A stretch of 64,000 bases of DNA from an uncultured bacterium (GTDB lineage: Bacteria; Edwardsbacteria; CAYGWX01). The DNA lies in the NCBI GenBank assembly GCA_964353855.1, contig CAYGWX010000005.1:7120-71119 (forward strand), written 5' to 3'. Below, in pieces: positions 8,116 to 19,300 of this stretch. The translations under genes and the position numbers were made by a program. The notes under the pieces are model-generated. The model ran no database searches and was not told the origin of the DNA. It saw nothing but the letters and a program-made list of their open reading frames with translations. The stretch's first letter is position 1, and every line of letters starts with the position of its first letter.

Positions 8116-11100
8116 ATGACTTCCGAGACCGAAACCATCGGACTCCCCAGTGAGGAAAAGGACCTGGCCTCCCTGGTCGGCAAGCGGGTCATCGAGGATA
8201 TGCTCGCGGCCATCATCGGTTATCTGCCGACCCGGGCTGCCCTGTTCGATCCCCAGGGCCGGGCTCTCGTCGAGCTCTCTCCCTGTGACTATTGCCAGGC
8301 CCTGAAAGAACGGGACGGTTCCCCGGTGTGCACCGGGTTTTACTCGTCCTTCGTACAGGATACCGCACGGACCCAGACCCCACTGGAGCGGTCTTGCCCC
8401 GGAGGCTGCCTGATGCACTCCGAGCCCGTTCTGTTCGGCGGCCACACCCTGGGCGTCCTCCTGCTCCGTCTCTCGGCTCCCCCCACGGATCCGGCCGCGC
8501 TTGCGCCCATCGCCGATGCGTTCTCTCTTCCCAGTGAGGTTTTGCTCCAAAAGGCAGGCCGGGTCCCGAACTTCCCCGAGCCTCTCGTGCTGGCTGCCCG
8601 GGACCATCTCGCTCAAACCGCACGCTTAATCCCCGAACTCTACCGGGCTGTGCTGGCCGAACGCAAGGCGCGGGAACTGGCCGCCATCCAGGCCATCGTC
8701 GCCACGGTCAGCCAGGCCAAGGACGCCAAGAGCCTGGCCAAGCGCGCCATGGAGACGATCCTGGAGCTCCTGCATCTGGAGATCGGGGGCCTCGCTTTCT
8801 ACGATTCCCAAAAGGGCGAATTGGTCACCGCCGCGATCATCGGACTTCCCCCGGAGTTGGCGGTCCATTATGCCCGGATTTCCCTCAAGACGGGTTCCGG
8901 CATCGCAGCCCAGGTCGCCAAGACCCACCAGCCTATTTTGGTGACGGATGTCTCCCAGCCTTCCTTCACGGTGGGCAATTCCCAGGAAGTGATCAAGCAG
9001 CTCCGCATCTCCTCCCTGGTGATCATGCCGCTCCTCGTAGCCGGGGAGTTCGTCGGCGGCATCGAGGTCGCGGCCCAGGGCGAGCGGCGCTTTACCCAGG
9101 AAGATCTCGACCTCATTTCCTCGGTCGCCACTCCCCTCGGCGTGGGCCTGAGGCGCCTCCGCCTGCAAGAGGACCTCCAGACCCGGAACCAGGAACTCCT
9201 GGCTTTGAACTCCATCACGGCCAGCATCAGCCGCTCCCTGAACCTCGAGGCCATCCTCCACGATTCCCTGGACAACATCATCGAGCTCTTCCAGGCCCAG
9301 GGCGGGACGCTTTATCTCGTGGACGAGGCCGGGGAACGCCTCATCCTCTCCGCCTCCCGCAATGCGCCGGACTGGTACCTGACGATGGCCGGGACCCTCC
9401 CCTTCGGCGCGGGCCTCGGCGGTAAGACCGCCAAGGCGGGCGGCCCACCCCGCGTCGGGAACATGGCCGACCTCTACCAGGACTATCCCGACATCCTCCG
9501 CCGCATGGAGGAGACCTACGGCAAAGGGGGGGAGACCCTCTATGTCGCGGCTCCCCTGCTCTCCCGGGACCGCGTCCTCGGGGTCATGCATCTCGTGTTT
9601 CGCGGGCCCCGGGAGTTCCGCCCCGAGGAGCTCGGCCTTCTCGGCTCCATCGGGAACCAGATCGGCCCGGCCATCGAGAACGCCCGGCTTTACGAATCCG
9701 AGCACCGCCGCCGGGCCCAGCTCGCCGGGCTCTCCGAGATCGTCCGGGCCCTTTCCGCGGAGCACGATCTCGGGACCCTGCTCAAGATGATCGTGACCCG
9801 CGCCGCCGAGGTCATGCACGCCCAGGCCACCAGCCTGATGATGTGGGACGAGGAGGAAGAGCATCTCCTCATCCGGGCCAGCCAGGGCCTCAGCCCGAGA
9901 TACGCTTCCGAATACCGCATTCCCCGGGAACGGACCCTGAATCTGGAGACCTCCCCCGACGGAAGGTTCGTTCCGATCATTCTCGCTGAACTCGCCGAAC
10001 AGCCCTTTGGAAAAATGGAGTTTAACAGGGAAGAAGGCCTCTGTTCGTTATTGACCATCCCCCTCGCCGGGTCCAGGACCCCAATCCATCGGGGAAGGAG
10101 GGCCGGGCTCTCCGGGCTCCTGAACATCTACAGCAAGGGCGAGCCCCGGGAGTTCCGTCCCGAAGAGGTGGAGCTGGCCGCCATCTTCGCCGACCAGGCC
10201 GCCGTGGCCCTGGACAATGCCCGCCTCCTCGCCGAGCGCGAGCGTCGCATCGCCCAGCTCGGGGTCCTGAACCAGATCAGCCAGGCGATCAGCGCCACCC
10301 TGCGCTTCGACCAGCTTCTGGATTTGATCTACTGGCAGGTCAGCCGAGTCATGGATACGGCCAACTTCTACATCGCCCTGGCCTATCCGGAGAAGAACCT
10401 CCTGACCTTCGAATATTTCGTCGAGGACCGCAAGCGTTCGGAGCGCCAGAGCCGGCAGATGGCCAACGGCCTGACCGAACACATCCTGCGCAGCCGGAAA
10501 CCCTTGCTCATCTCCGGAAACATCGCCGCAGCCTGCCAGGACCTCGGGGTCGAGCTGATGGGTCGCCTGTCTCAATCTTATCTCGGGGTTCCGATGACGA
10601 TCGGCGAGACCATCATCGGGGTCATTGCGGTGCAGAGCTATACCCGTGAAGATGCTTACGGCACGGACGACCAGGAGCTCCTGGCCACCATCGCCCACCA
10701 GGCCGCCATCGCCGTGGAGAACGCCCGGCTCTACGAGTCCACGAGCCAGCGCATGAAGGAGATCGGCATCCTCTATCGCATCGCCCAGAGCCTCTCCACC
10801 TCCCTGGACCTGGACAGCCTGCTGGCGAGCTTCCTCGAGGTCCTGAACCAGGAGCTCGGATACCGCTGGGCCATCCTGCTCCTGGTGGACAGGGAGAAGA
10901 ATGAGCTGTTCATCCGGGCCTGCCCTCCGGATTATCCCCAGGAGGTCCAGGAGAAGGTCCGGTTCAAAATCGGGGCCGAGGGGATCTCGGGGCACGTGGC
11001 CCTGACCGGCGAGCCCGTGGTCCTTTCCGACGTCACCCGGGATCCGCGCTATGCCCCCGGACTGATCCAGGCGCGCTCCGAGATCGCGGTTCCGCTGAAG

Positions 11101-12846
11101 ATCGGGGGGGAGGTCATCGGAGTCCTGGACATCGAGGACCCGGCTCCCGGAGCCTTCGGGGACCGCGACCTCCGCCTGCTCACCTCCCTCGCCGCCCAGG
11201 TGGCCATCGCCATCGAGAACGCCCGGCTCTACCAGGCCACCTCGGAGCGCGCCAAGGAGCTGGCCATCCTCTACGATATCGGGCGCAACCTTACCCTGAA
11301 CCTGGACCTGGATAGTCTCCTGGACCAGATTTTAGGCGCCATGCAGGAATCCTTCGGCTACCTGAACTGCGCCATCCTGCTCCTGGACAGGGAGAAGAAC
11401 GAGCTCTTCATCAAGGCGGCCCGGGGATACACCGAGGAGGTCATCCGGAACCGCCGCATCCGGATCGGGGAGGAGGGCATCACCGGCTGGGTCGCGGCCC
11501 GCGGGGAGCCCCTGAACGTCCCCGATGTGAGTCGGAACGGGCGCTACGTCGAGGGGGTGGTCTCCAGCCGCTCCGAGCTGGCCGTGCCCCTGCGCATCGG
11601 CCAGGAGGTGATCGGGGTCCTGGACGTGGAGAGCCAGGAGGTCGCCGCCTTCCAGGAGAAGGACCTGCGCATGCTCACCTCCTTCGCCGCCCAGGCCGCC
11701 ATCGCCATCGAGAACGCCCGGCTCTACGCCAACCTCGAGGAGCGGGTCAAGGAGCTGGACATCCTCTCCCTGATCACCGGTCGGATCAACGCCGGTATCT
11801 CCATCTCCGAGACCCTGGAGACCGTCGTGGACGAGATCCGCAAGGTCATCCCCTACGATACCGCCATCCTCTACTTCTCCGATTCCGGGGGGACGACGCT
11901 TCACCCCCAGATCGTGCGGTTGGCCTCGTCGGAATTCCCCCAGGATTACATCGACCGGCTCCGCACCTTTCCCGTGCCTTTCGGCAAGGGCCTGGTCGGG
12001 TGGTCGGCCCAGGAGAAGGAGCCCTTGAACTGCCCCAACGTCCTCCAGGACCCCCGGCGCCTTGACCTTCCCGAGACGCCCGCTCTTCTCTCGGTCCTGG
12101 CCGTTCCCTTCGTCGTGGAGCAGAAGACCATCGGGGCCCTGGCCCTGTCCCAGCTCGGAGAGCGGCGGTTCGCTTCCTCCGATCTCCGGCTCCTTCGGGT
12201 CCTGGCCGACGATTGCGCCATCGCCATCCACAAGGCCCGGCTCTTCGACGAGACCCAGCGTCTGGCCATCCTGGACGGCCTCACCGGCCTGGCCAACAGC
12301 CGGCACTTCTACAACGAGCTCAAGAAGGAGATGGAGCGCGCCGAGCGCTACAGCAAGCCTGTGTCCCTCATCCTCTTCGACATCGATGACTTCAAGAAGG
12401 TCAACGATTCCCTGGGCCACCAGGTCGGGGACAACCTGCTCCGCGAGATGGCTCAGATCCTGCCCACCCTCACGCGCAAGAGCGACCTCCTGGCCCGCTA
12501 CGGCGGGGAGGAGTTCGCCGTGTTGCTGCCCGAGACCAGCCGGGAGCACGCCCTGGCCACAGCCGAGCGCATCCGGGCCAAGGTGGAGGGCCATGTCTAC
12601 CCCGGCGTGGACCTTCCCCGGGGCCGGATGACGATCAGCCTGGGAGTCGCCACCTATCCCTACGATGCGGCCACCCACCGGGATTTCGTCCGCGCCGCGG
12701 ACATCGCCCTGTACGCCGCCAAGCGGGCCGGAAAGAACCGGGTCTTCTCCTATGAGACCTTGAGCCTCAAGCAGTCCCCCGCCCCCGGCGGGGCCGGGGG
12801 GGAGCCTGACACCGGCTACGAGTTCCGCGGCTCCCCGCCTGAATGA
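8116..12846 (+). CDS. Giant multidomain diguanylate cyclase: N-terminal Cys-containing sensor (PocR-like), about 7 GAF domains, C-terminal GGDEF
   Basis: GAF domains are delimited by recurring AIENARLYE linker helices (six ENARLY-type plus HKARLF). The C-terminus carries RYGGEEF (GGDEF A-site) with an upstream DxLT region, so the active-site motif is intact. Confidence 0.8.
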   Translation: MTSETETIGLPSEEKDLASLVGKRVIEDMLAAIIGYLPTRAALFDPQGRALVELSPCDYCQALKERDGSPVCTGFYSSFVQDTARTQTPLERSCPGGCLMHSEPVLFGGHTLGVLLLRLSAPPTDPAALAPIADAFSLPSEVLLQKAGRVPNFPEPLVLAARDHLAQTARLIPELYRAVLAERKARELAAIQAIVATVSQAKDAKSLAKRAMETILELLHLEIGGLAFYDSQKGELVTAAIIGLPPELAVHYARISLKTGSGIAAQVAKTHQPILVTDVSQPSFTVGNSQEVIKQLRISSLVIMPLLVAGEFVGGIEVAAQGERRFTQEDLDLISSVATPLGVGLRRLRLQEDLQTRNQELLALNSITASISRSLNLEAILHDSLDNIIELFQAQGGTLYLVDEAGERLILSASRNAPDWYLTMAGTLPFGAGLGGKTAKAGGPPRVGNMADLYQDYPDILRRMEETYGKGGETLYVAAPLLSRDRVLGVMHLVFRGPREFRPEELGLLGSIGNQIGPAIENARLYESEHRRRAQLAGLSEIVRALSAEHDLGTLLKMIVTRAAEVMHAQATSLMMWDEEEEHLLIRASQGLSPRYASEYRIPRERTLNLETSPDGRFVPIILAELAEQPFGKMEFNREEGLCSLLTIPLAGSRTPIHRGRRAGLSGLLNIYSKGEPREFRPEEVELAAIFADQAAVALDNARLLAERERRIAQLGVLNQISQAISATLRFDQLLDLIYWQVSRVMDTANFYIALAYPEKNLLTFEYFVEDRKRSERQSRQMANGLTEHILRSRKPLLISGNIAAACQDLGVELMGRLSQSYLGVPMTIGETIIGVIAVQSYTREDAYGTDDQELLATIAHQAAIAVENARLYESTSQRMKEIGILYRIAQSLSTSLDLDSLLASFLEVLNQELGYRWAILLLVDREKNELFIRACPPDYPQEVQEKVRFKIGAEGISGHVALTGEPVVLSDVTRDPRYAPGLIQARSEIAVPLKIGGEVIGVLDIEDPAPGAFGDRDLRLLTSLAAQVAIAIENARLYQATSERAKELAILYDIGRNLTLNLDLDSLLDQILGAMQESFGYLNCAILLLDREKNELFIKAARGYTEEVIRNRRIRIGEEGITGWVAARGEPLNVPDVSRNGRYVEGVVSSRSELAVPLRIGQEVIGVLDVESQEVAAFQEKDLRMLTSFAAQAAIAIENARLYANLEERVKELDILSLITGRINAGISISETLETVVDEIRKVIPYDTAILYFSDSGGTTLHPQIVRLASSEFPQDYIDRLRTFPVPFGKGLVGWSAQEKEPLNCPNVLQDPRRLDLPETPALLSVLAVPFVVEQKTIGALALSQLGERRFASSDLRLLRVLADDCAIAIHKARLFDETQRLAILDGLTGLANSRHFYNELKKEMERAERYSKPVSLILFDIDDFKKVNDSLGHQVGDNLLREMAQILPTLTRKSDLLARYGGEEFAVLLPETSREHALATAERIRAKVEGHVYPGVDLPRGRMTISLGVATYPYDAATHRDFVRAADIALYAAKRAGKNRVFSYETLSLKQSPAPGGAGGEPDTGYEFRGSPPE

Positions 12847-12895: not shown

Positions 12896-13105
12896 CCACT
12901 CCCTGGAGTGGAGCTTCCACTCACCTGAGTGAAGCCGCCACTCACCTGAGTGAAGCCGTCGCTCCCCTGAGTGAAACCACCACTCACCTGAGTGAAGCCG
13001 CTACTCACCCCAGTGAAGCCGCCACTCACCTGAGTGAAGCCGTCACTCCCCGGAGCGGAGCCGTCACTCTTAGGAGTGGAGACATCACTCCCCCTGGTAT
13101 CGGGG
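12896..13105. repeat. Array of about 9-10 tandem 21-bp direct repeats (consensus CACTCACCTGAGTGAAGCCGC), each with a 7-2-7 inverted repeat TCACTCA-cc-TGAGTGA
   Basis: Read directly from 12896 to 13105. Units are contiguous with no spacers. The 21-bp period equals two helical turns. Sits between the DGC stop and the pilT start. Confidence 0.8.
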
Positions 13106-13161: not shown

Positions 13162-14304
13162 ATGCCCGAAAACGACTTCACCCACGAATACGGCGAAGCG
13201 CCCCTGGTTTCGCTCGAGGCCCTGCCCATCGACCAGCTCCTCGAGGAGCTGGTCCTGCGCAACGCCTCGGACATCCACCTCCGGGTGGGCGAGCCCCCGG
13301 CCTACCGGGTGTTCGGCGAGCTCACCCGCTCCGAGCTGACCCCCCTCTCCGCCGACGAGCTCAAGAAGCTCCTCTACGCCGTGATGAACGAGGAGCGGCG
13401 CGAGCGCTTCGAGCGCACCTGCGAGCTGGACATGTCCTACGCCATCCAGGGCGTGGCCCGCTTCCGCATCTCGGTCTTCCGCCAGCGCGGGGAGATCGGC
13501 GCCGTGCTCCGGGTCATCCCGCTCAAGCTCAAGTCCATCGACGACTGGGGCCTGCCCCAGATCATCAAGCAGTTCGCCACCCTGCCCAGAGGGCTCATCC
13601 TGGTCACCGGGCCCACCGGCTCCGGCAAATCCACCACCCTCTCCGCCATGGTGGACTACATCAACGAGTCCCGCCGGAGCCACATCATCACCATCGAGGA
13701 CCCCCTGGAGTACGTGCACCACGACAAGCAGTCCGTGGTGGAGCAGCGCGAGATCGGGGTGGATACCCGTTCCTTCGCCTCGGCCCTGGCCCACGTCATG
13801 CGCCAGAATCCGGACGTCATCATGGTCGGCGAGCTCCGCGACCATGAGACCATGTCCCTGGCCATGTCCGCGGCCGAGACCGGGCATCTCGTCCTCTCCA
13901 CCCTGCACACCATGGACGCCTCCCAGACCGTGGGCCGGATCATCGACGCCTTCTCCCCTGAGGAGCAGACCCAGGTGAGGCTCCAGCTCTCCACCGTGCT
14001 CCAGGGCGTGGTCTCCCAGACCCTGCTCCGTCGGACCGACGGCCCGGGCCTGGTGGCCGCCTTCGAGATCATGACCTGTACCGGGGCCATCAAGAGCCTC
14101 ATCCGCGAGGGCAAGACCCCGCAGATATATTCCCTGATCCAGACCGGCAGCCGTTACGGCATGCAGACCCTGGACCAGTCTTTGAAGGAGCTTCTGTTCA
14201 AGGGCATCGTCTCGGCCGAGGATGCCCTGGCCCGCTCGGCCAACCCCCAGGAGTTCGAGGGCGCCATCAATGCCCTCCAGCCCCCCCGGGGCCCGGGGGG
14301 CTGA
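13162..14304 (+). CDS. pilT: Type IV pilus retraction ATPase PilT family
   Basis: Walker A GPTGSGKST, Asp box, Walker B DVIMVGELRD, His box, and the PilT signature AIKSLIREGK. Confidence 0.85.
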   Translation: MPENDFTHEYGEAPLVSLEALPIDQLLEELVLRNASDIHLRVGEPPAYRVFGELTRSELTPLSADELKKLLYAVMNEERRERFERTCELDMSYAIQGVARFRISVFRQRGEIGAVLRVIPLKLKSIDDWGLPQIIKQFATLPRGLILVTGPTGSGKSTTLSAMVDYINESRRSHIITIEDPLEYVHHDKQSVVEQREIGVDTRSFASALAHVMRQNPDVIMVGELRDHETMSLAMSAAETGHLVLSTLHTMDASQTVGRIIDAFSPEEQTQVRLQLSTVLQGVVSQTLLRRTDGPGLVAAFEIMTCTGAIKSLIREGKTPQIYSLIQTGSRYGMQTLDQSLKELLFKGIVSAEDALARSANPQEFEGAINALQPPRGPGG

Positions 14305-14309
14305 CGGGC

Positions 14310-14504
14310 TTGAAGGTTCGTGATATGATCAAGAGGATCGAGACGGATGGCTGGTTTTTAATAGCCACGAAAGGCAGCCACCGCCAATACAAGCATCCCA
14401 CGAAACTGGGACGGGTAACCATTGCCGGCCAGCCTAACCATGACTTGGCCGCCGGAACCTTGAACAGTATCCTGAAGCAGGCCCGACTGAAGGAGTTGAA
14501 CTAG
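14310..14504 (+). CDS. hicA: HicA-family mRNA interferase toxin
   Basis: 64 aa with a YcfA/HicA-like KGSHRQYKHP motif. 5 nt after the pilT stop. Local GC is about 52% against about 68% in flanking DNA. Confidence 0.75.
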   Translation: MKVRDMIKRIETDGWFLIATKGSHRQYKHPTKLGRVTIAGQPNHDLAAGTLNSILKQARLKELN

Positions 14505-14506
14505 CA

Positions 14507-14719
14507 ATGCACCGCTTCCTTATCGTCATCGAAAGGGCCGACGGGAACTATTCGGCCTATTCTCCGGATCTTCCGGGGTGCGCGGCCACCGGCGCGACCC
14601 GCGAAGAGGCCGAACGGAACATGCACGAGGCCATCGAGATGCACGTTCGGGGGCTTGAGGAGGACAAGCTTCCTGTGCCCGAGTCCAATTCCTTCGCCGA
14701 ATACTTAGCCATACCATAA
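14507..14719 (+). CDS. hicB: HicB-family antitoxin
   Basis: 70 aa with the UPF0150/HicB N-terminal fold signature (YSAYSPDLPGCAATGATREEA). 2 nt after hicA. Confidence 0.7.
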   Translation: MHRFLIVIERADGNYSAYSPDLPGCAATGATREEAERNMHEAIEMHVRGLEEDKLPVPESNSFAEYLAIP

Positions 14720-14802
14720 GGGCAGCTAACCAACGAACCGATGTTTCCGTCCACCCGTCTAAGCGTTCAACCGTCTAACTTTTGCAGGGTGGGTTGATCC
14801 CC

Positions 14803-15873
14803 ATGCAGATGCTGGACCTGCTCTACGCCACCTTCACCAAGAACGCCTCCGACCTCGTCCTGAAGGCCGGCAGCCCGCCCCTGGTCCGCATCCAGGGCGA
14901 GCTCATCCCCCTGGCCTATCCGCCCCTCACCGCGGACGAGACCCGCGCCCTGGTCCTCTCCATCCTCACCCGGGTCCAGGTGGAGAAGCTGGAGCGGGAC
15001 CTCGAGCTGGACATCGCCACCAGCCTGTCCAACCTCGCCCGCTTCCGGGTGAACGTCTTCCACCAGCAGGGAACCCTGGCCATGGTCGCCCGGGTGGTGA
15101 GGAGCAAGATCCCCAGCCTGGATGACCTCGGCCTCCCGCTCGCGGCCAAGGCCCTGGCCTTGAAATCCAGGGGCCTGGTCCTGGTGACCGGCCCGGCCGG
15201 GTGCGGCAAGTCCACGACCCTGGCGGCGCTCTTAGAGTTCCGCAACCAGACCCTGCCCTGCCACATCATGACCATCGAGGACCCCATCGAGTTCGTCTAC
15301 CTGGGCAAGAAGGCCCTGGTCAACCAGCGCGAGATCGGGGTGGACACCCTCTCCTACGCCGAGGCCCTGCGCAGTGTCCTGCGCCAGGACCCGGACGCCA
15401 TCATGGTCGGGGAGCTCCGCGACCGCGAGACCCTGGGCATGGCCCTGACCGCGGCCGAGACCGGGCATCTGGTCCTCTCCACGATGCACACCTCCTCGGC
15501 CGTGGAGACGATCGACCGCATGGTCGGCATCTTCCCGGCCCACCAGGAATCCCAGGTCCGCCTGCAGATCTCGGTGAACCTGGGCGGCATCATCTGTCAG
15601 CAGCTCCTCGCCCGGGCGGACGGCAAGGGCCGGCTCCCGGCCTATGAGATCCTGCTGGTCAACGCCGCCGTGCGTTCCCTGATCCGCGAGGGCAAGACGG
15701 CCCAGCTCCCCTCCGCCATCCAGACCGGGGCCAGGCTGGGCATGTCCACGATGAACGCCTACCTCGCCGAGCTCGTCAAGCGGGGCGTGGTGACCCTCGA
15801 GGAGGCCATGAAGAAGACCGAGACCCCGGAGGAGCTGAAGGGGATGGCCGGAAGCAAGCCTTCGGCTTCCTAA
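14803..15873 (+). CDS. Second PilT/PilU-family ATPase paralog
   Basis: Walker A GPAGCGKST, DAIMVGELRD, and AVRSLIREGK. Start moved to the ATG at 14803 (MQMLDLLY); the track begins at a TTG at 14782. Confidence 0.8.
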   Translation: MQMLDLLYATFTKNASDLVLKAGSPPLVRIQGELIPLAYPPLTADETRALVLSILTRVQVEKLERDLELDIATSLSNLARFRVNVFHQQGTLAMVARVVRSKIPSLDDLGLPLAAKALALKSRGLVLVTGPAGCGKSTTLAALLEFRNQTLPCHIMTIEDPIEFVYLGKKALVNQREIGVDTLSYAEALRSVLRQDPDAIMVGELRDRETLGMALTAAETGHLVLSTMHTSSAVETIDRMVGIFPAHQESQVRLQISVNLGGIICQQLLARADGKGRLPAYEILLVNAAVRSLIREGKTAQLPSAIQTGARLGMSTMNAYLAELVKRGVVTLEEAMKKTETPEELKGMAGSKPSAS

Positions 15874-15900
15874 AGAAAAGGATAATCCGCCAAAAGAAGA

Positions 15901-15928
15901 GGGCCGCCCAATGGGCGGCCCTTTAATT
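15901..15928. terminator. Bidirectional rho-independent terminator between convergent pilT paralog and antitoxin
   Basis: GGGCCGCCC-aat-GGGCGGCCC stem-loop followed by TTTAATT on the plus strand and a T-rich run (CTCTTCTTTTG) on the minus strand. Confidence 0.6.
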
Positions 15929-15952
15929 GCGGGGTGGGCTCAAGGTCTATTT

Positions 15953-16189
15953 TCAGGAGCTGCGTTTCCGGGGTCCGAGGCCGTGCTTCGCTCGCCCGGA
16001 CAGTCGCCGTTTGATCTCGGCCAACCCGATCGTCGCGGCCTTGCCTTCCCTTTCCTTGGCCTGGCGCAGACAGCGCAGGTCCTCGTAATCCTCCAGCTCC
16101 TCCCGGAGCCTTAGGAATTGAGCATAGGGAAGAACGGCAAAGGCCTTTCTCCCGTTTTTTTCGATGATCTGGGCTTCCATATGGCTCAT
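15953..16189 (-). CDS. Type II antitoxin (Phd/YefM or RelB-like) partner of the upstream RelE-type toxin
   Basis: 78 aa, acidic/basic with a predicted N-terminal beta-strand then helices (KNGRKAFAVLPYAQFLRLREELED). 9 nt downstream of the toxin gene. Local GC is about 50%. Confidence 0.55.
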   Translation of the reverse strand: MSHMEAQIIEKNGRKAFAVLPYAQFLRLREELEDYEDLRCLRQAKEREGKAATIGLAEIKRRLSGRAKHGLGPRKRSS

Positions 16190-16198
16190 GGCTTCTCC

Positions 16199-16447
16199 CT
16201 ATCGGTAGGCTTCTCTGCGGTGGCGGATGCGATAGACGATGATCGTTCTCCCGTCCACTTCGAACAGCACGCGGTATGCGCCGACTCGCATGCGGTATTC
16301 CGGAGTGAAGTTCGTGAGGTGCTTCACGTCTCCCCGCAGGTCTTTTAGCATGGTTTCGATCTTTTCCAGGATACGGCTCTGCGCCCGGGTCGAAAGACGC
16401 TCCAGATCCTTGACGGCTCCGGGCTTGAACCGGACCTCGTAGGCCAT
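16199..16447 (-). CDS. RelE/ParE-family toxin
   Basis: 82 aa ending ...RTIIVYRIRHRREAYR, the typical RelE/ParE C-terminus. Toxin-first gene order as in higBA. Confidence 0.7.
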   Translation of the reverse strand: MAYEVRFKPGAVKDLERLSTRAQSRILEKIETMLKDLRGDVKHLTNFTPEYRMRVGAYRVLFEVDGRTIIVYRIRHRREAYR

Positions 16448-16601
16448 GTCTTCCCCGTATTATGGGATGGGTTCTGTTGCCGGGCTGACCGCGGACATCA
16501 TCTTGCTCGTCATCCTGAACTTGGTTCAGGATCTCGTCGTTTCTTATCTCACCTAAGAGGATTATACTCGAAACCGGGCTGAAAATCAAGGGGCTCCCCA
16601 A

Positions 16602-16734
16602 AAAGGAGGCGATGAAGAAGACCGAGACCCCGGAGGAGCTGAAGGGGATGGCTGGCACCCATCCCGCGCCCTCATAGCCGCCCCCCGGCGCAATCTAAGG
16701 ATAAAGTAAAAAGGGCCGCCCAAAAGGGCGGCCC
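16602..16734 (+). pseudogene. Relic copy of the pilT-paralog 3' coding end plus its terminator hairpin (insertion scar)
   Basis: A 41-bp run (atgaagaagaccgagaccccggaggagctgaaggggatggc) is identical to 15809-15849. It is followed by ctaaggataaag and GGGCCGCCC-aaaa-GGGCGGCCC, mirroring 15873-15921. Confidence 0.7.
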
Positions 16735-16952
16735 TTGTGTTTGTGGGGCGGGGGCGAAGCCCCGCCCCCCTCCTGTTACAACTCATTACCATTTTTTACT
16801 ATTCATTACTCTTCTTTTCCTTCCGTCTCACTATCTCACCTTCACGATCCGCACAATCTCGTCATGCTGAACTTGTTTCAGCATCTCTCTTCCCGGCATC
16901 ATTGCGAGGAGCGTAGCGACGAAGCAATCTCGCCGTACCTCCTCACTCCTTT

Positions 16953-19079
16953 CTACCTCACCTTCACAATCCTCCCTAACCCGGCCTCCCTTTCCAGCCC
17001 TCTGAGGAAGTACACCCCCGGCGCCAGCCCCTCCCCGACCCGGTCTCCCCGGAAGGTCCCGACCCTCCGTCCCGCTATGTCGTAGAGCGCGAATCGCTCG
17101 GCCTCGTGGCCCGGCACCGTGGTGAACGAGACGAATGGATTAGGTATGATCTTCAACCGTCCAACCGTCAACCCGTCCAACGATCTAACCGAGGGTTGGT
17201 CTTCCACGAACGACGTTCCGCCGTCCGTGGTCTTCAAAATCGTGCCGTCCGTTCCGACGGCGTACCCTGTGTTGTTATCAACGGGGAAATAAACCGAGTG
17301 AAGGATGGTGGACGATCCCGGATCCTGGCCCGTCCAATGGCTTCCCCCGTCCGTGGTTTTGAGGATGGTGCACAGACCTCGACTGTAATCTCCTCCCACG
17401 GCATATCCGGTTTGAGAACTCACCGGGAAATAGATTGAGAAGATATAATGAGTTGAATCCTGCCTTGTCCAGCTTGTCCCTCCGTTGGTGGTCTTCGCAA
17501 TGGTGTTAGCCCCTGCGGCATAGCCCGTTTGAGCATTGATCGGAAAGTGCACCGACAGGAGAGAGGGGTACGTTGAACTTTGATACACCCAATTGCTCCC
17601 GCCGTTCGTGGTCTTGTAGATACCTCCATCTCCCGCGATGTAACCGGTATCTGCATCCACAGGGAAGTAGACCGACCAGAGGTAATTGTTCGTAATGATT
17701 CGTTGGTCCACCCAGGTTGAGCCCCCGTCGGTGGTCTTCACGACGGCGCCTTGGTCACCTACGGCATAGCCGGTCTGGACATTCACGGGGAAATGGACGG
17801 AGCGCAGTGGGCTAAATATTCCAGTGTTCTGTCGCGTCCAAATCGCCCCGCCATCCGTGGTCTTCAAGGCATACGCTCCATACCCATCCGCCCCTACAAT
17901 GTAGCCGGTTTGGGCGTCCACCGGAAAATGCACGGCCCGAGTATATGAAAAGGATGTGTCCGCAGTCGGGCTTGCCCAGACGGTCCCTCCGTTGGTGGTC
18001 TTTAAAATAGTACCCCAGGGGCTGACGGAATAGCCGGTCTGAGCGCCTGTTGGGAAGGAGACCGAGAGCAAATCATAGGTTATTCCCTGAGTTTTTCTCA
18101 CCCAGGTATTTCCGCCATCCGTCGTCTTTAGAACCGACCCGCCTTCTCCCGCGATGTATCCTGTCTGGGCGTTTTGGGGAAAACCAACGGATAACAAAGA
18201 ATCCTTTACTGAGAAAACTTGATTGGCCCAGGTAGCTCCGCCATCCGTCGTTTTTAGAATGACGCCGGAAAAGGCAACTCGTGCTCCCACAGCATAACCG
18301 GTTAAGGCATTCATGGGGAAATGGACTGCATAGAGATTGTGGGACGTGCCTGCACTCTGCGGAGCCCAGGTGGTTCCGCCATTGGTAGTTTTTAATATCC
18401 TTCCGTTGGAGCCCGTTGCGTACCCCGTGGTGGCGTCCACAGAAAAATGGACCGAATAAAGGTCGTCCGTGGTTCCAGAATGCAGCGTGTCCCAGACGGC
18501 TCCCCCGTTTGTGGTCTTTCGGATGGCGCCTCCGCGTCCCGCGGCGTATCCGGTCTGGGCGTTCCCCGGAAAGTAAACCGAGCGAAGGCCGGGGTTGTAA
18601 TACAACGGCTGCGGAGCCCAGGTCGCACCCCCGTTGGTGGTCTTGAGGATGGTGGTATTGCTGCCGTCGTCGTCCCTGGCGATGTACCCGGTATCCGCCC
18701 CTGCTGGGAAGTGGACGCAGTAAAGGCGTGTGGTGAACCCTGAGGTCTGCCGGACCCAGGAGGTTCCGCCGTTTACGGTCTTGAGTATGATGCCGGAATC
18801 CCCCACGGCGTAGCCAGTTTGGGGCCCTGCCGGAAAATGCACAGAACGTAGGGTGAAGGTTGTTCCCGAGGTCAGGACCCTCCATGTGGCTCCCCCGTCC
18901 GTAGTTTTCATCATTGTTCCATAGGCTCCGACCGTGTATCCTGTGTTTTCGTCCACGAAGCACTGTCCGGCCAGCGTGTTCCCCTGCGGCAGGGGGTTCT
19001 GCCAGAACCATCCGGCCTGCCCGAATCCGGGCAATAAAAATAGCACGGCCGGGATCAAGACGAGTCTCAAGTAACACAT
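16953..19079 (-). CDS. Secreted BNR/Asp-box repeat double beta-propeller protein with T9SS C-terminal sorting domain
   Basis: At least 14 repeats of ILKTT(D/N)GG(A/T)TW (BNR S-x-D-x-G-x-T-W). The C-terminal ~80 aa match por_Secre_tail style (KIIPNPF...GVYFLR...). Start set at the ATG at 19079, with AAGGAGG 6 nt upstream and a signal peptide MCYLRLVLIPAVLFLL. Confidence 0.75.
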   Translation of the reverse strand: MCYLRLVLIPAVLFLLPGFGQAGWFWQNPLPQGNTLAGQCFVDENTGYTVGAYGTMMKTTDGGATWRVLTSGTTFTLRSVHFPAGPQTGYAVGDSGIILKTVNGGTSWVRQTSGFTTRLYCVHFPAGADTGYIARDDDGSNTTILKTTNGGATWAPQPLYYNPGLRSVYFPGNAQTGYAAGRGGAIRKTTNGGAVWDTLHSGTTDDLYSVHFSVDATTGYATGSNGRILKTTNGGTTWAPQSAGTSHNLYAVHFPMNALTGYAVGARVAFSGVILKTTDGGATWANQVFSVKDSLLSVGFPQNAQTGYIAGEGGSVLKTTDGGNTWVRKTQGITYDLLSVSFPTGAQTGYSVSPWGTILKTTNGGTVWASPTADTSFSYTRAVHFPVDAQTGYIVGADGYGAYALKTTDGGAIWTRQNTGIFSPLRSVHFPVNVQTGYAVGDQGAVVKTTDGGSTWVDQRIITNNYLWSVYFPVDADTGYIAGDGGIYKTTNGGSNWVYQSSTYPSLLSVHFPINAQTGYAAGANTIAKTTNGGTSWTRQDSTHYIFSIYFPVSSQTGYAVGGDYSRGLCTILKTTDGGSHWTGQDPGSSTILHSVYFPVDNNTGYAVGTDGTILKTTDGGTSFVEDQPSVRSLDGLTVGRLKIIPNPFVSFTTVPGHEAERFALYDIAGRRVGTFRGDRVGEGLAPGVYFLRGLEREAGLGRIVKVR

Positions 19080-19300
19080 CGCTTCCTCCTTTCCGTACCT
19101 ATCGGGTGAACAGGCTTTATGCCTCTGTTCCAAAGACCCTTATATCATAAGGCGAACCCCCCGATTTTGTCAAGCCCTCATTTTGACTTTTTTCATGCCT
19201 TCCCGTCTGGGGGGTTAATCCCTTCCATCCGTGGTTCTCTCGGTCTTTCCCCCAGCCCCGCCCTCAGCCTGCCCCGCCTGTCTCCGCTCCCTGCGCCAAT

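Follow-up and report, generated by a model that had tools for sequence, protein, structure and literature searches.

The DNA analysed here is a 64,000-nucleotide (nt) stretch of contig CAYGWX010000005.1 from an uncultured bacterium, referred to throughout as the window, and the subject is a small toxin-antitoxin (TA) cassette that lies between two copies of the 3′ end of pilT2, the second of two tandem genes for PilT-family ATPases. The original prediction, made from the letters of the window, took this arrangement for the scar of an insertion. The nearest named PilT relatives belong to Candidatus Edwardsbacteria (57% identity), and orthologs of pilT2 at 98% identity were found on five contigs from other metagenome samples (L001, L006, L009, L010, and L013).

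The TA cassette and its flanking repeats

Judged by the families its genes match, the cassette is a conventional RelE-type type II TA module (Table 1). The best PDB match of the toxin is RelE3 (3bpq_B, 1.2e-8), with Rv2866 also matched (3g5o_B, 5.7e-4), and at the sequence level its best structural relatives are thus RelE proteins. Its 182 homologs are about 82 amino acids (aa) long, and residues R52, R54, R59, R73, R77, and Y81 are invariant in 22 of them. The antitoxin match is weak, with both profile scores below cutoff (PF02604, 19.1 bits against 29.8, E = 1.1e-3; TIGR01552, 18.2 against 20.8, 1.2e-3) and no sequence match in the PDB; the protein is 100% identical in five other samples. 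The antitoxin gene starts 9 nt downstream of the toxin gene on the same strand, a pairing kept in all homologous loci. As originally predicted, this RelE-type pair between the repeats is low in G+C, at 57% for the cassette compared with 68% for pilT2. The promoter upstream of the toxin gene is the only promoter-like site in 15600-17000; it points leftward, sits 15 nt from the second repeat, and is conserved in all filled loci described below. Most likely the cassette is an ordinary type II module that serves addiction or defence, in which the toxin would cleave mRNA in a ribosome-dependent, RelE-like manner and a labile antitoxin would neutralise it. Like toxin-first RelE/ParE modules of the higBA kind, it has its own promoter and terminator, low G+C, and a patchy distribution; unlike higBA, its antitoxin is weakly Phd/YefM-like and not a HigA-type helix-turn-helix protein.

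The insert measures approximately 0.8 kb, or approximately 0.75 kb without a 51-nt mini-element that was added later. Only approximately 15–30 nt at each end separate the repeats from the unit of promoter, toxin, antitoxin, and terminator, and the toxin and antitoxin genes are the only open reading frames (ORFs) with family support between the repeats. No recorded sequence matches the toxin exactly; relatives at 96–98% identity are confined to this pilT2 site, and identity falls to 73% or less in the next ones. The plasmid database PLSDB held no DNA match to the cassette, viral contigs (IMG/VR) carried only remote toxins of 35–39% identity, and a scan of genome contigs for the core pattern of the repeat gave a sole match, archaeal and unrelated.

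The repeat was predicted as an exact 41-bp sequence present twice. A sequence search confirmed exactly two copies of ATGAAGAAGACCGAGACCCCGGAGGAGCTGAAGGGGATGGC in the window, at 15808-15848 and 16612-16652, which corrects the predicted coordinates by 1 nt and 3 nt; by chance, no match to this 41-mer is expected in the window even with three mismatches allowed. The similarity reaches 8 nt further upstream (AGGAGGCC in copy 1, AGGAGGCG in copy 2), giving an extended repeat, AGGAGGC included, in which 49 of 50 nt are identical. Copy 1 has the same sequence in the real pilT2 copies of two other strains that carry the cassette (L003 and L013). Beyond this near-perfect 50-nt core, each copy continues for approximately 75 nt of diverged homologous tail and terminator, which align at approximately 56% identity with insertions and deletions. 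Both copies nevertheless have the same order downstream of the core, namely seven codons, a stop, an AGGATAA-type motif, and a perfect GGGCCGCCC/GGGCGGCCC hairpin. The hairpins lie where they were predicted (15901-15921 and 16713-16734), are terminator-like, and fold at -25 to -31 kcal/mol on both strands. The one next to pilT2, taken as 15900-15922, folds at -30.7 and -28.4 kcal/mol on its two strands and is terminator-like on the minus strand; the one beyond the second copy scores as terminator-like on both strands.

The second copy does contain the predicted 21-codon ORF with AAAGGAGG ahead of it, but as a by-product of the duplication. The supposed ribosome-binding site was placed 4 nt before the ATG, whereas AGGAGG in fact ends 2 nt before it, a poor spacing. 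It did not evolve independently as a ribosome-binding site, since it falls within duplicated pilT2 codons (GAG GAG GCC, for E E A). A 17-nt stretch of the antitoxin gene (16090-16106, codons REELED) is 88% complementary to the core (15825-15841 and 16629-16645, codons PEELKG); this inverted match was put down to chance, probably reflecting E-E-L codons in GC-rich DNA.

Table 1. Features of the pilT2 locus and its sdhC counterpart. Positions are those of the window unless another contig is named; the terms imported and displaced follow from the allele comparison in the next section.
Feature	Position	Strand	Details
pilT1, PilT-family	13162-14304		In tandem with pilT2; hicAB pair between them
hicAB, second TA cassette (HicA/HicB)	14305-14802 (hicA 14310-14504; hicB 14507-14719)		Between pilT1 and pilT2
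pilT2, PilT/PilU-family type IV pilus retraction ATPase paralog	14803..15873	+	TIGR01420 (5.7e-132), PF00437
Direct repeat, copy 1	15800..15849	+	AGGAGGCC, exact 41-mer, and C; encodes EEAMKKTETPEELKGMA of pilT2
Imported replacement tail and short 3′ untranslated region, allele class C	15850..15899	+	GSKPSAS and stop; from allele comparison
Imported bidirectional intrinsic terminator	15900..15922	.	GGGCCGCCC-AAT-GGGCGGCCC; ends pilT2 (+) and TA operon (-)
Antitoxin gene, 78 aa, second in operon	15953..16189	-	Weakly Phd/YefM-like
RelE/ParE-superfamily toxin gene, 82 aa, first in operon	16199..16447	-	PF05016 (5.5e-13; 49.8 bits, cutoff 23)
Palindromic mini-element, approximately 51 nt	16502..16552	.	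In TA 5′ leader; core ATCCTGAAC-TTGG-TTCAGGAT; hairpin -16.7 kcal/mol
Sigma-70-like TA promoter	16561..16589	-	TTGATT-17-TATAAT; 10/12 positions match
Direct repeat, copy 2, start of displaced relic	16604..16653	+	AGGAGGCG, exact 41-mer, and T
Relic of ancestral pilT2 tail, 3′ untranslated region, and bidirectional terminator, allele class B	16654..16736	+	GTHPAPS and stop; hairpin 16711-16736
sdhC direct repeats, 87 nt	L022 877-963 and 1762-1848 (also L023)		Duplicate sdhC promoter, ribosome-binding site, and first 17 codons

Empty and filled sites in related strains

Relatives of the locus were found among contigs of other metagenome samples by PilT2 protein identity (98%), and a search of metagenome contigs for the core pattern added more. 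The empty state that the original prediction had envisaged, a pilT2 tail followed by a single terminator and no TA genes, was present in six of them (L001, L006, L009, L010, L016, and the more distant L002, at 89%). Two carry the filled site with both repeat copies and the TA pair on a single contig (L003 and L013), and three cover it in part, either the side where the relic meets the TA genes (L004 and L007) or the side where the TA genes meet pilT2 (L005). All filled sites share the same junctions, and the relic junction reads ccccaaaa followed directly by AGGAGGCS. The TA cassette at the pilT2 end is therefore an insertion polymorphism and no assembly artefact, because empty sites exist in close relatives and the same filled site was recovered in independent assemblies; the predicted insertion scar is upheld.

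To tell the ancestral repeat copy from the other, sites were compared over the stretch that follows the core and includes the whole hairpin. The alleles fell into three classes with 51–72% identity between classes. Class A (78–95% identity within the class) comprises most empty sites and the relics of L003, L004, L007, and L013. Class B comprises the empty site of L010 and the relic of the window, which are 81% identical to each other. Class C (75–94% within the class) was found only in the pilT2-attached copy of filled loci and in none of the six empty sites. The relic of L003 shares 95% identity with the functional tail and terminator at the L016 empty site, and the sequence further downstream is colinear as well, whereas the pilT2-attached copy of L003 is only 64% identical to its own relic; relics in the other filled strains are also class A and 91–95% identical to the L016 site. 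The relic thus clusters with the empty-site alleles, which identifies the downstream copy as the original, now displaced; what pilT2 uses today as tail and terminator, including its last eight codons (from 15849), came with the cassette. The hairpin stems are perfect in both class A and class C yet differ by compensatory changes (GGGGCGGCC and GGGCCGCCC, respectively), which identifies them as long-separated functional alleles and not fresh copies.

These comparisons revise one part of the original prediction and strengthen another. A target duplication of approximately 110 bp had been proposed, but the two copies belong to different allele classes: the relic reaches up to 95% identity with empty-site alleles and copy 1 only 51–72%, and the replacement tail and terminator were therefore imported and not copied from the target. 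The structure is an attL/attR-like hybrid with no target-site duplication, in keeping with the predicted resemblance to att-site reconstitution.

The core haplotype is the same in both cores of every filled strain, and each empty site differs from it by at least one single-nucleotide polymorphism (SNP). At the L006 empty site, the tail is K-type (GSKPAAS), like that of copy 1 in filled loci, and the terminator belongs to class A. An L013-like allele should yield this combination if recombination between its repeats deleted the cassette, which makes L006 a possible case of cassette loss, but it could equally be another tail allele. In the same gene end, the last 39 nt of pilT2 (15835-15873 in the window, and the same positions in L001, L006, L009, L010, L013, and L016) account for 22 of the 111 variable sites among strains that are 98% identical. 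This tail follows the pattern G-[ST]-x-P-x-x-S, is hypervariable far above the synonymous divergence of the remaining gene, and behaves as the edge of a variable region.

The strains are a recombining population: any two of them differ in pilT2 at 41–55 of 1071 nt, the differences are distributed as a mosaic, and the filled strains form no cluster of their own. Synonymous divergence was compared between the two fully covered filled genomes, the window and L013. It is 0.150 in pilT2 (41/274 sites) and 0.105 in pilT1, but there are no differences at 61 synonymous sites in the toxin gene, one at 56 in the antitoxin gene (1/117 for the TA pair), and three at 91 in hicAB. The contrast between the TA pair and pilT2 is significant (Fisher p=3.6e-6), as is that between hicAB and pilT1 plus pilT2 (p=0.007). 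Across six samples, the cassette interior is 0.3–1.5% divergent compared with 4–5% for pilT2. The TA genes therefore have a far younger common ancestor than the surrounding genes, and they have moved between strains. Differences between the pilT2 haplotypes of the window, L003, and L013 persist to 9 nt ahead of the repeat, so the shared block starts essentially at the repeat itself.

Possible routes of insertion

In line with the original prediction, Pfam scans found neither an integrase nor a transposase in the cassette or in 48 ORFs across the 64-kb window, which encode housekeeping and type IX secretion functions (RpoD, DnaG, IleRS, SHMT, NrdR, Rnf, TatC, AccA, and PorV). The cassette ends have no terminal inverted repeats, an end-to-end inverted alignment as good as the observed one being reached by 57–64 of 500 shuffles. 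With repeats of 50–125 nt that belong to different allele classes, the cassette does not have the properties of a transposon, insertion sequence, or miniature inverted-repeat transposable element (MITE).

The original prediction also raised the possibility of the same cassette beside other gene tails. None was found at high identity, but L022 and L023 carry a homologous cassette between duplicated 5′ ends of sdhC, with a toxin of 73% identity, an antitoxin of the same length and spacing, and an extra 67-aa HicB-like ORF upstream of the toxin gene. The L022 repeats lie 885 nt apart and are 78% identical overall and 89% identical over the 53 coding nt. The relic beside the toxin promoter encodes MRTKRGLWAWLLQRITA, as in orthologs without a TA cassette (1 of 52 nt different), whereas the functional sdhC copy beside the antitoxin terminator is divergent and encodes MRTKRGLMAWLLQRATA (5 of 52 nt different). 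The polarity is thus the same at both loci, with the relic by the toxin promoter and the divergent functional copy by the antitoxin terminator, although the pilT2 and sdhC repeat sets have no sequence in common. The relic copy in L022 ends in a 20-codon ORF (MRTKRGLWAWLLQRITARPA).

The cassette encodes no recombinase. We infer that host homologous recombination made the joint, and a homology-guided single crossover of the Campbell type, or an equivalent one-sided homologous event, seems to us to have about an even chance of being the correct account. The incoming DNA, circular or one-sided, would have carried, attached to the TA operon, a diverged pilT2 3′ end and terminator of its own, and would have crossed over with the chromosome within the last 50 nt of pilT2. 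At the left joint, as the sequence itself shows, pilT2 reads through the 50-nt core into the imported tail (GSKPSAS) and the imported bidirectional terminator, which leaves its reading frame at full length and the TA operon terminated. At the right joint, by the TA promoter, the second core is followed by the displaced ancestral tail and terminator, which still terminates the convergent gene for a BNR-type propeller protein. The old bidirectional terminator stays with that gene and would shield the TA promoter from read-through. The filled allele would subsequently spread among diverged strains through homologous recombination, with occasional loss by recombination between the repeats; excision should leave a circle junction of ccccaaaaAGGAGGCG-core-CGGAAGCAAGCC (cassette end, core, and class C tail). 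When a non-replicating circle that carries a gene fragment integrates, as with suicide plasmids and F-primes, a single crossover duplicates the segment and leaves one complete gene and one truncated relic. The pilT2 locus has exactly the same topology, but its homology is very short (50 nt near-identical and approximately 125 nt in total), and no natural vehicle or circle was found.

Several observations weigh against a Campbell-type insertion. At 50 nt, the core is close to the minimum length at which RecA-dependent recombination is efficient. Had a simple crossover occurred within it, one copy should retain SNPs of the recipient, and no filled strain shows them. The imported segment is not uniform: between L013 and the window, the tail and terminator differ by 29% while the TA genes are near-identical, and the extra differences fade at the antitoxin stop codon. 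Recombination must therefore also have taken place inside the locus at a later time. No circular form, excision product, or donor locus (a class C tail followed by the TA genes with no relic) was directly observed, and since the analysis covers one 64-kb window, an integrase could possibly sit elsewhere in the genome. Four other contexts of homologous cassettes (L018-21, L024, L028-30, and L031-33) have no significant flanking repeats, so the route is not general for the family, and the pattern recurs without being universal. A 15-nt CACAGAG-type match in L018 and L020 was considered as a flanking repeat and rejected, as it looks like a dispersed repeat motif.

Alternatively, the cassette could be the remnant of a site-specific integrative element with a tyrosine or serine recombinase that targets the pilT2 3′ end, or could have been mobilised in trans by one, with the 41–50-nt identity as the att core; we consider this rather unlikely. 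The element would have replaced the gene end, as e14 and phage 21 do at icd, and either all but the addictive TA pair was later deleted or the integrase is encoded at some other genomic site. Of the genes in a decaying element, TA modules are the likeliest to survive. A hybrid attL/attR-like layout with an exact core, an imported replacement tail, and a displaced ancestral tail is what integration would leave, junctions identical in all filled strains are consistent with it, haplotypes that differ right up to the repeat are expected of a crossover confined to the core, and the icd/icdC pair flanking e14 provides a precedent (PMC13626634; PMC3603311). However, the insert holds no recombinase gene and none turned up in the 48 window ORFs scanned, and the insert is trimmed to promoter, toxin, antitoxin, and terminator identically in six samples, with no larger version seen. 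The L022 relative is still harder to accommodate, for it has the same architecture around a wholly different repeat (the sdhC 5′ end, 78–89% identical). The lack of shared sequence between the two repeat sets makes a recombinase with a fixed att site unlikely, and L022 would need a second, independent, and equally tidy decay of a large element to exactly the TA operon, which is not parsimonious.

It is improbable that an as yet unknown staggered-cut or replication-based insertion duplicated approximately 80–130 nt of the target (AGGAGGC, core, tail, and terminator), with the copies then diverging in place or being partly replaced by recombination. The L013 copies, at 92% identity over 79 nt up to a shared TGAGCAAG, would suit such a duplication, as would the similar duplicated lengths at two independent loci (79–125 nt and 87 nt) and the clean start and end of cassette-specific DNA at the repeat boundaries. 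Within one genome, though, the relic is 91–95% identical to empty-site alleles while copy 1 is approximately 60–67% identical to its own relic, and divergence in place would have to strike only the copy under selection and remodel a perfect hairpin by compensatory changes. The absence of class C from the six empty sites, and of terminal inverted repeats and a transposase, also tells against it. A chimeric or collapsed contig as the source of the second copy, the outcome that the original prediction named as its refutation, has a negligible chance of being true. Nothing beyond the general risk of metagenome assemblies favours it, and both copies lie on one contig in independent assemblies made by different pipelines from different samples (L003, ENA ERZ27247851; L013, JGI Ga0315296). 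The junction of the relic with the TA genes is also present in L004 and L007 and that of the TA genes with pilT2 in L005, and the copies differ past the core, which excludes a collapsed repeat.

The individual parts of this arrangement have counterparts in known systems. At icd in E. coli, e14 and phage 21 supply a diverged replacement 3′ end that keeps their target at full length, the original end persists as the relic icdC, and the direct repeats can recombine to restore a chimeric gene (PMC13626634; PMC3603311). The pilT2 locus likewise has 3′-end direct repeats at both ends of the insert, a replacement end, a displaced relic, and empty sites of the attB type. In contrast to e14, which is about 15 kb and has its own integrase and excision functions, the insert here is a TA operon alone, and its relative in L022 uses a different gene end, with no shared att specificity. 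The minimal mobile elements of Neisseria are cassettes between conserved flanking genes whose spread has been attributed to transformation and flanking homology (PMC3787668). Like them, the cassette is small, present or absent between the same neighbours, free of mobility genes, and identical in distant strains yet variable between close ones, and the pilT2 locus borders a variable BNR-propeller gene. Among strains with 98% identical PilT, the interval from pilT2 to the BNR-propeller gene holds the TA cassette in some and not in others, and the same is true of hicAB in the interval from pilT1 to pilT2. Minimal mobile elements need no gene-end duplication, whereas a 50-nt repeat with hybrid alleles brackets the cassette here, which points to a single-crossover origin and not to allelic replacement alone. 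A literature search of incomplete coverage found no direct precedent for TA cassettes flanked by duplicated gene ends. RelE/ParE modules, icd-type end replacement, and islets with flanking homology are known, and it is their combination that is new, namely a TA-only insert of 0.8 kb that lacks a recombinase, lies between hybrid gene-end repeats, and occurs at two unrelated gene termini.

Chromosomal TA modules are patchy and clearly mobile, mostly outside recognisable mobile elements, and their arrival is poorly documented. The pilT2 locus offers a natural before-and-after series of empty sites, filled sites, hybrid repeats, a possible deletion product, and toxin-inactivated derivatives, and this series shows an insertion that preserves the interrupted gene by means of an imported spare gene end and without an encoded recombinase. 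With two loci as the evidence for generality, the sdhC case indicates that the pattern may recur; the structural and population evidence is solid, and it is the mechanism that we infer from it. If the pattern does recur, gene-end relics next to TA promoters would provide a simple computational signature to date and trace TA acquisition. A more speculative extension, which we put forward as doubtful, is that these RelE/Phd cassettes are a class of integrase-free, homology-guided "hitch-hiking" islets that carry a captured gene terminus as a portable attachment site. The captured terminus may be a 3′ end with its terminator, as at pilT2, or a promoter with a 5′ end, as at sdhC, and may repair the interrupted gene while the old terminus is left as a relic. 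Such islets, if real, would be a general and so far unnamed route for TA modules into core chromosomal operons.

Neighbouring elements and further insertions

The insertion of hicAB lies precisely at the junction of the pilT1 stop with the pilT2 start. Four empty-site strains (L001, L006, L009, and L010) lack it and have 4 nt from the pilT1 stop to the pilT2 ATG (tagcgccATG); L002 lacks it too, with a spacer of approximately 90 nt. L013, the sole other filled strain that covers the region, also carries hicAB, with a synonymous divergence from the window of 0.033 compared with 0.10–0.15 for the pilT genes. The hicA TTG start occupies the former place of the pilT2 ATG. A candidate junction duplication (GGGNGGGT-TGA) was rejected, as its similarity was reached by 1108 of 2000 shuffles, and hicAB has no significant flanking duplication.

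Two small elements have inserted into the TA cassette. The palindromic mini-element is present only in the window and L004 and appears as an alignment gap in L003, L005, L007, and L013; it is therefore a secondary insertion polymorphism among filled loci. Related hairpin elements occur in neighbouring intergenic DNA (window 16858-16887, L001 3842-3898, and L009 1269-1306). In L005 (203-398) and L007 (424-619), an identical 196-nt insertion splits the toxin gene after codon 34 and leaves the antitoxin gene intact. It is MITE-like, with imperfect terminal inverted repeats (TTACTCGGAGC / GCTCCCCGTAA) and a duplicated TA dinucleotide, and the window contains no copy of it. Disruption of the toxin gene alone in these two strains is an indirect hint of toxicity and its neutralisation.

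The convergent downstream gene (16953-19133, minus strand) and its counterparts in L003, L006, L010, and L013 always encode a Ycf48/BNR-type beta-propeller protein. These proteins are 407–726 aa long and less than 60–63% identical between strains with 98% identical PilT, and several end in a similar C-terminal ...VKVR peptide; this is a strain-variable gene, probably for a secreted protein. In the spacer between a large GAF/GGDEF gene (8116-12846) and pilT1, a tandem array at 12896-13094 consists of about 8–9 copies of a 21-nt unit with 78–83% matches to the consensus CCACTCACCTGAGTGAAGCCG. The motif cattgcgaggagcgtagcgacgaagcaatc at 16888-16935, which is itself an inverted repeat, adjoins the hairpin element in the window and looks like a dispersed intergenic repeat family of many environmental genomes.

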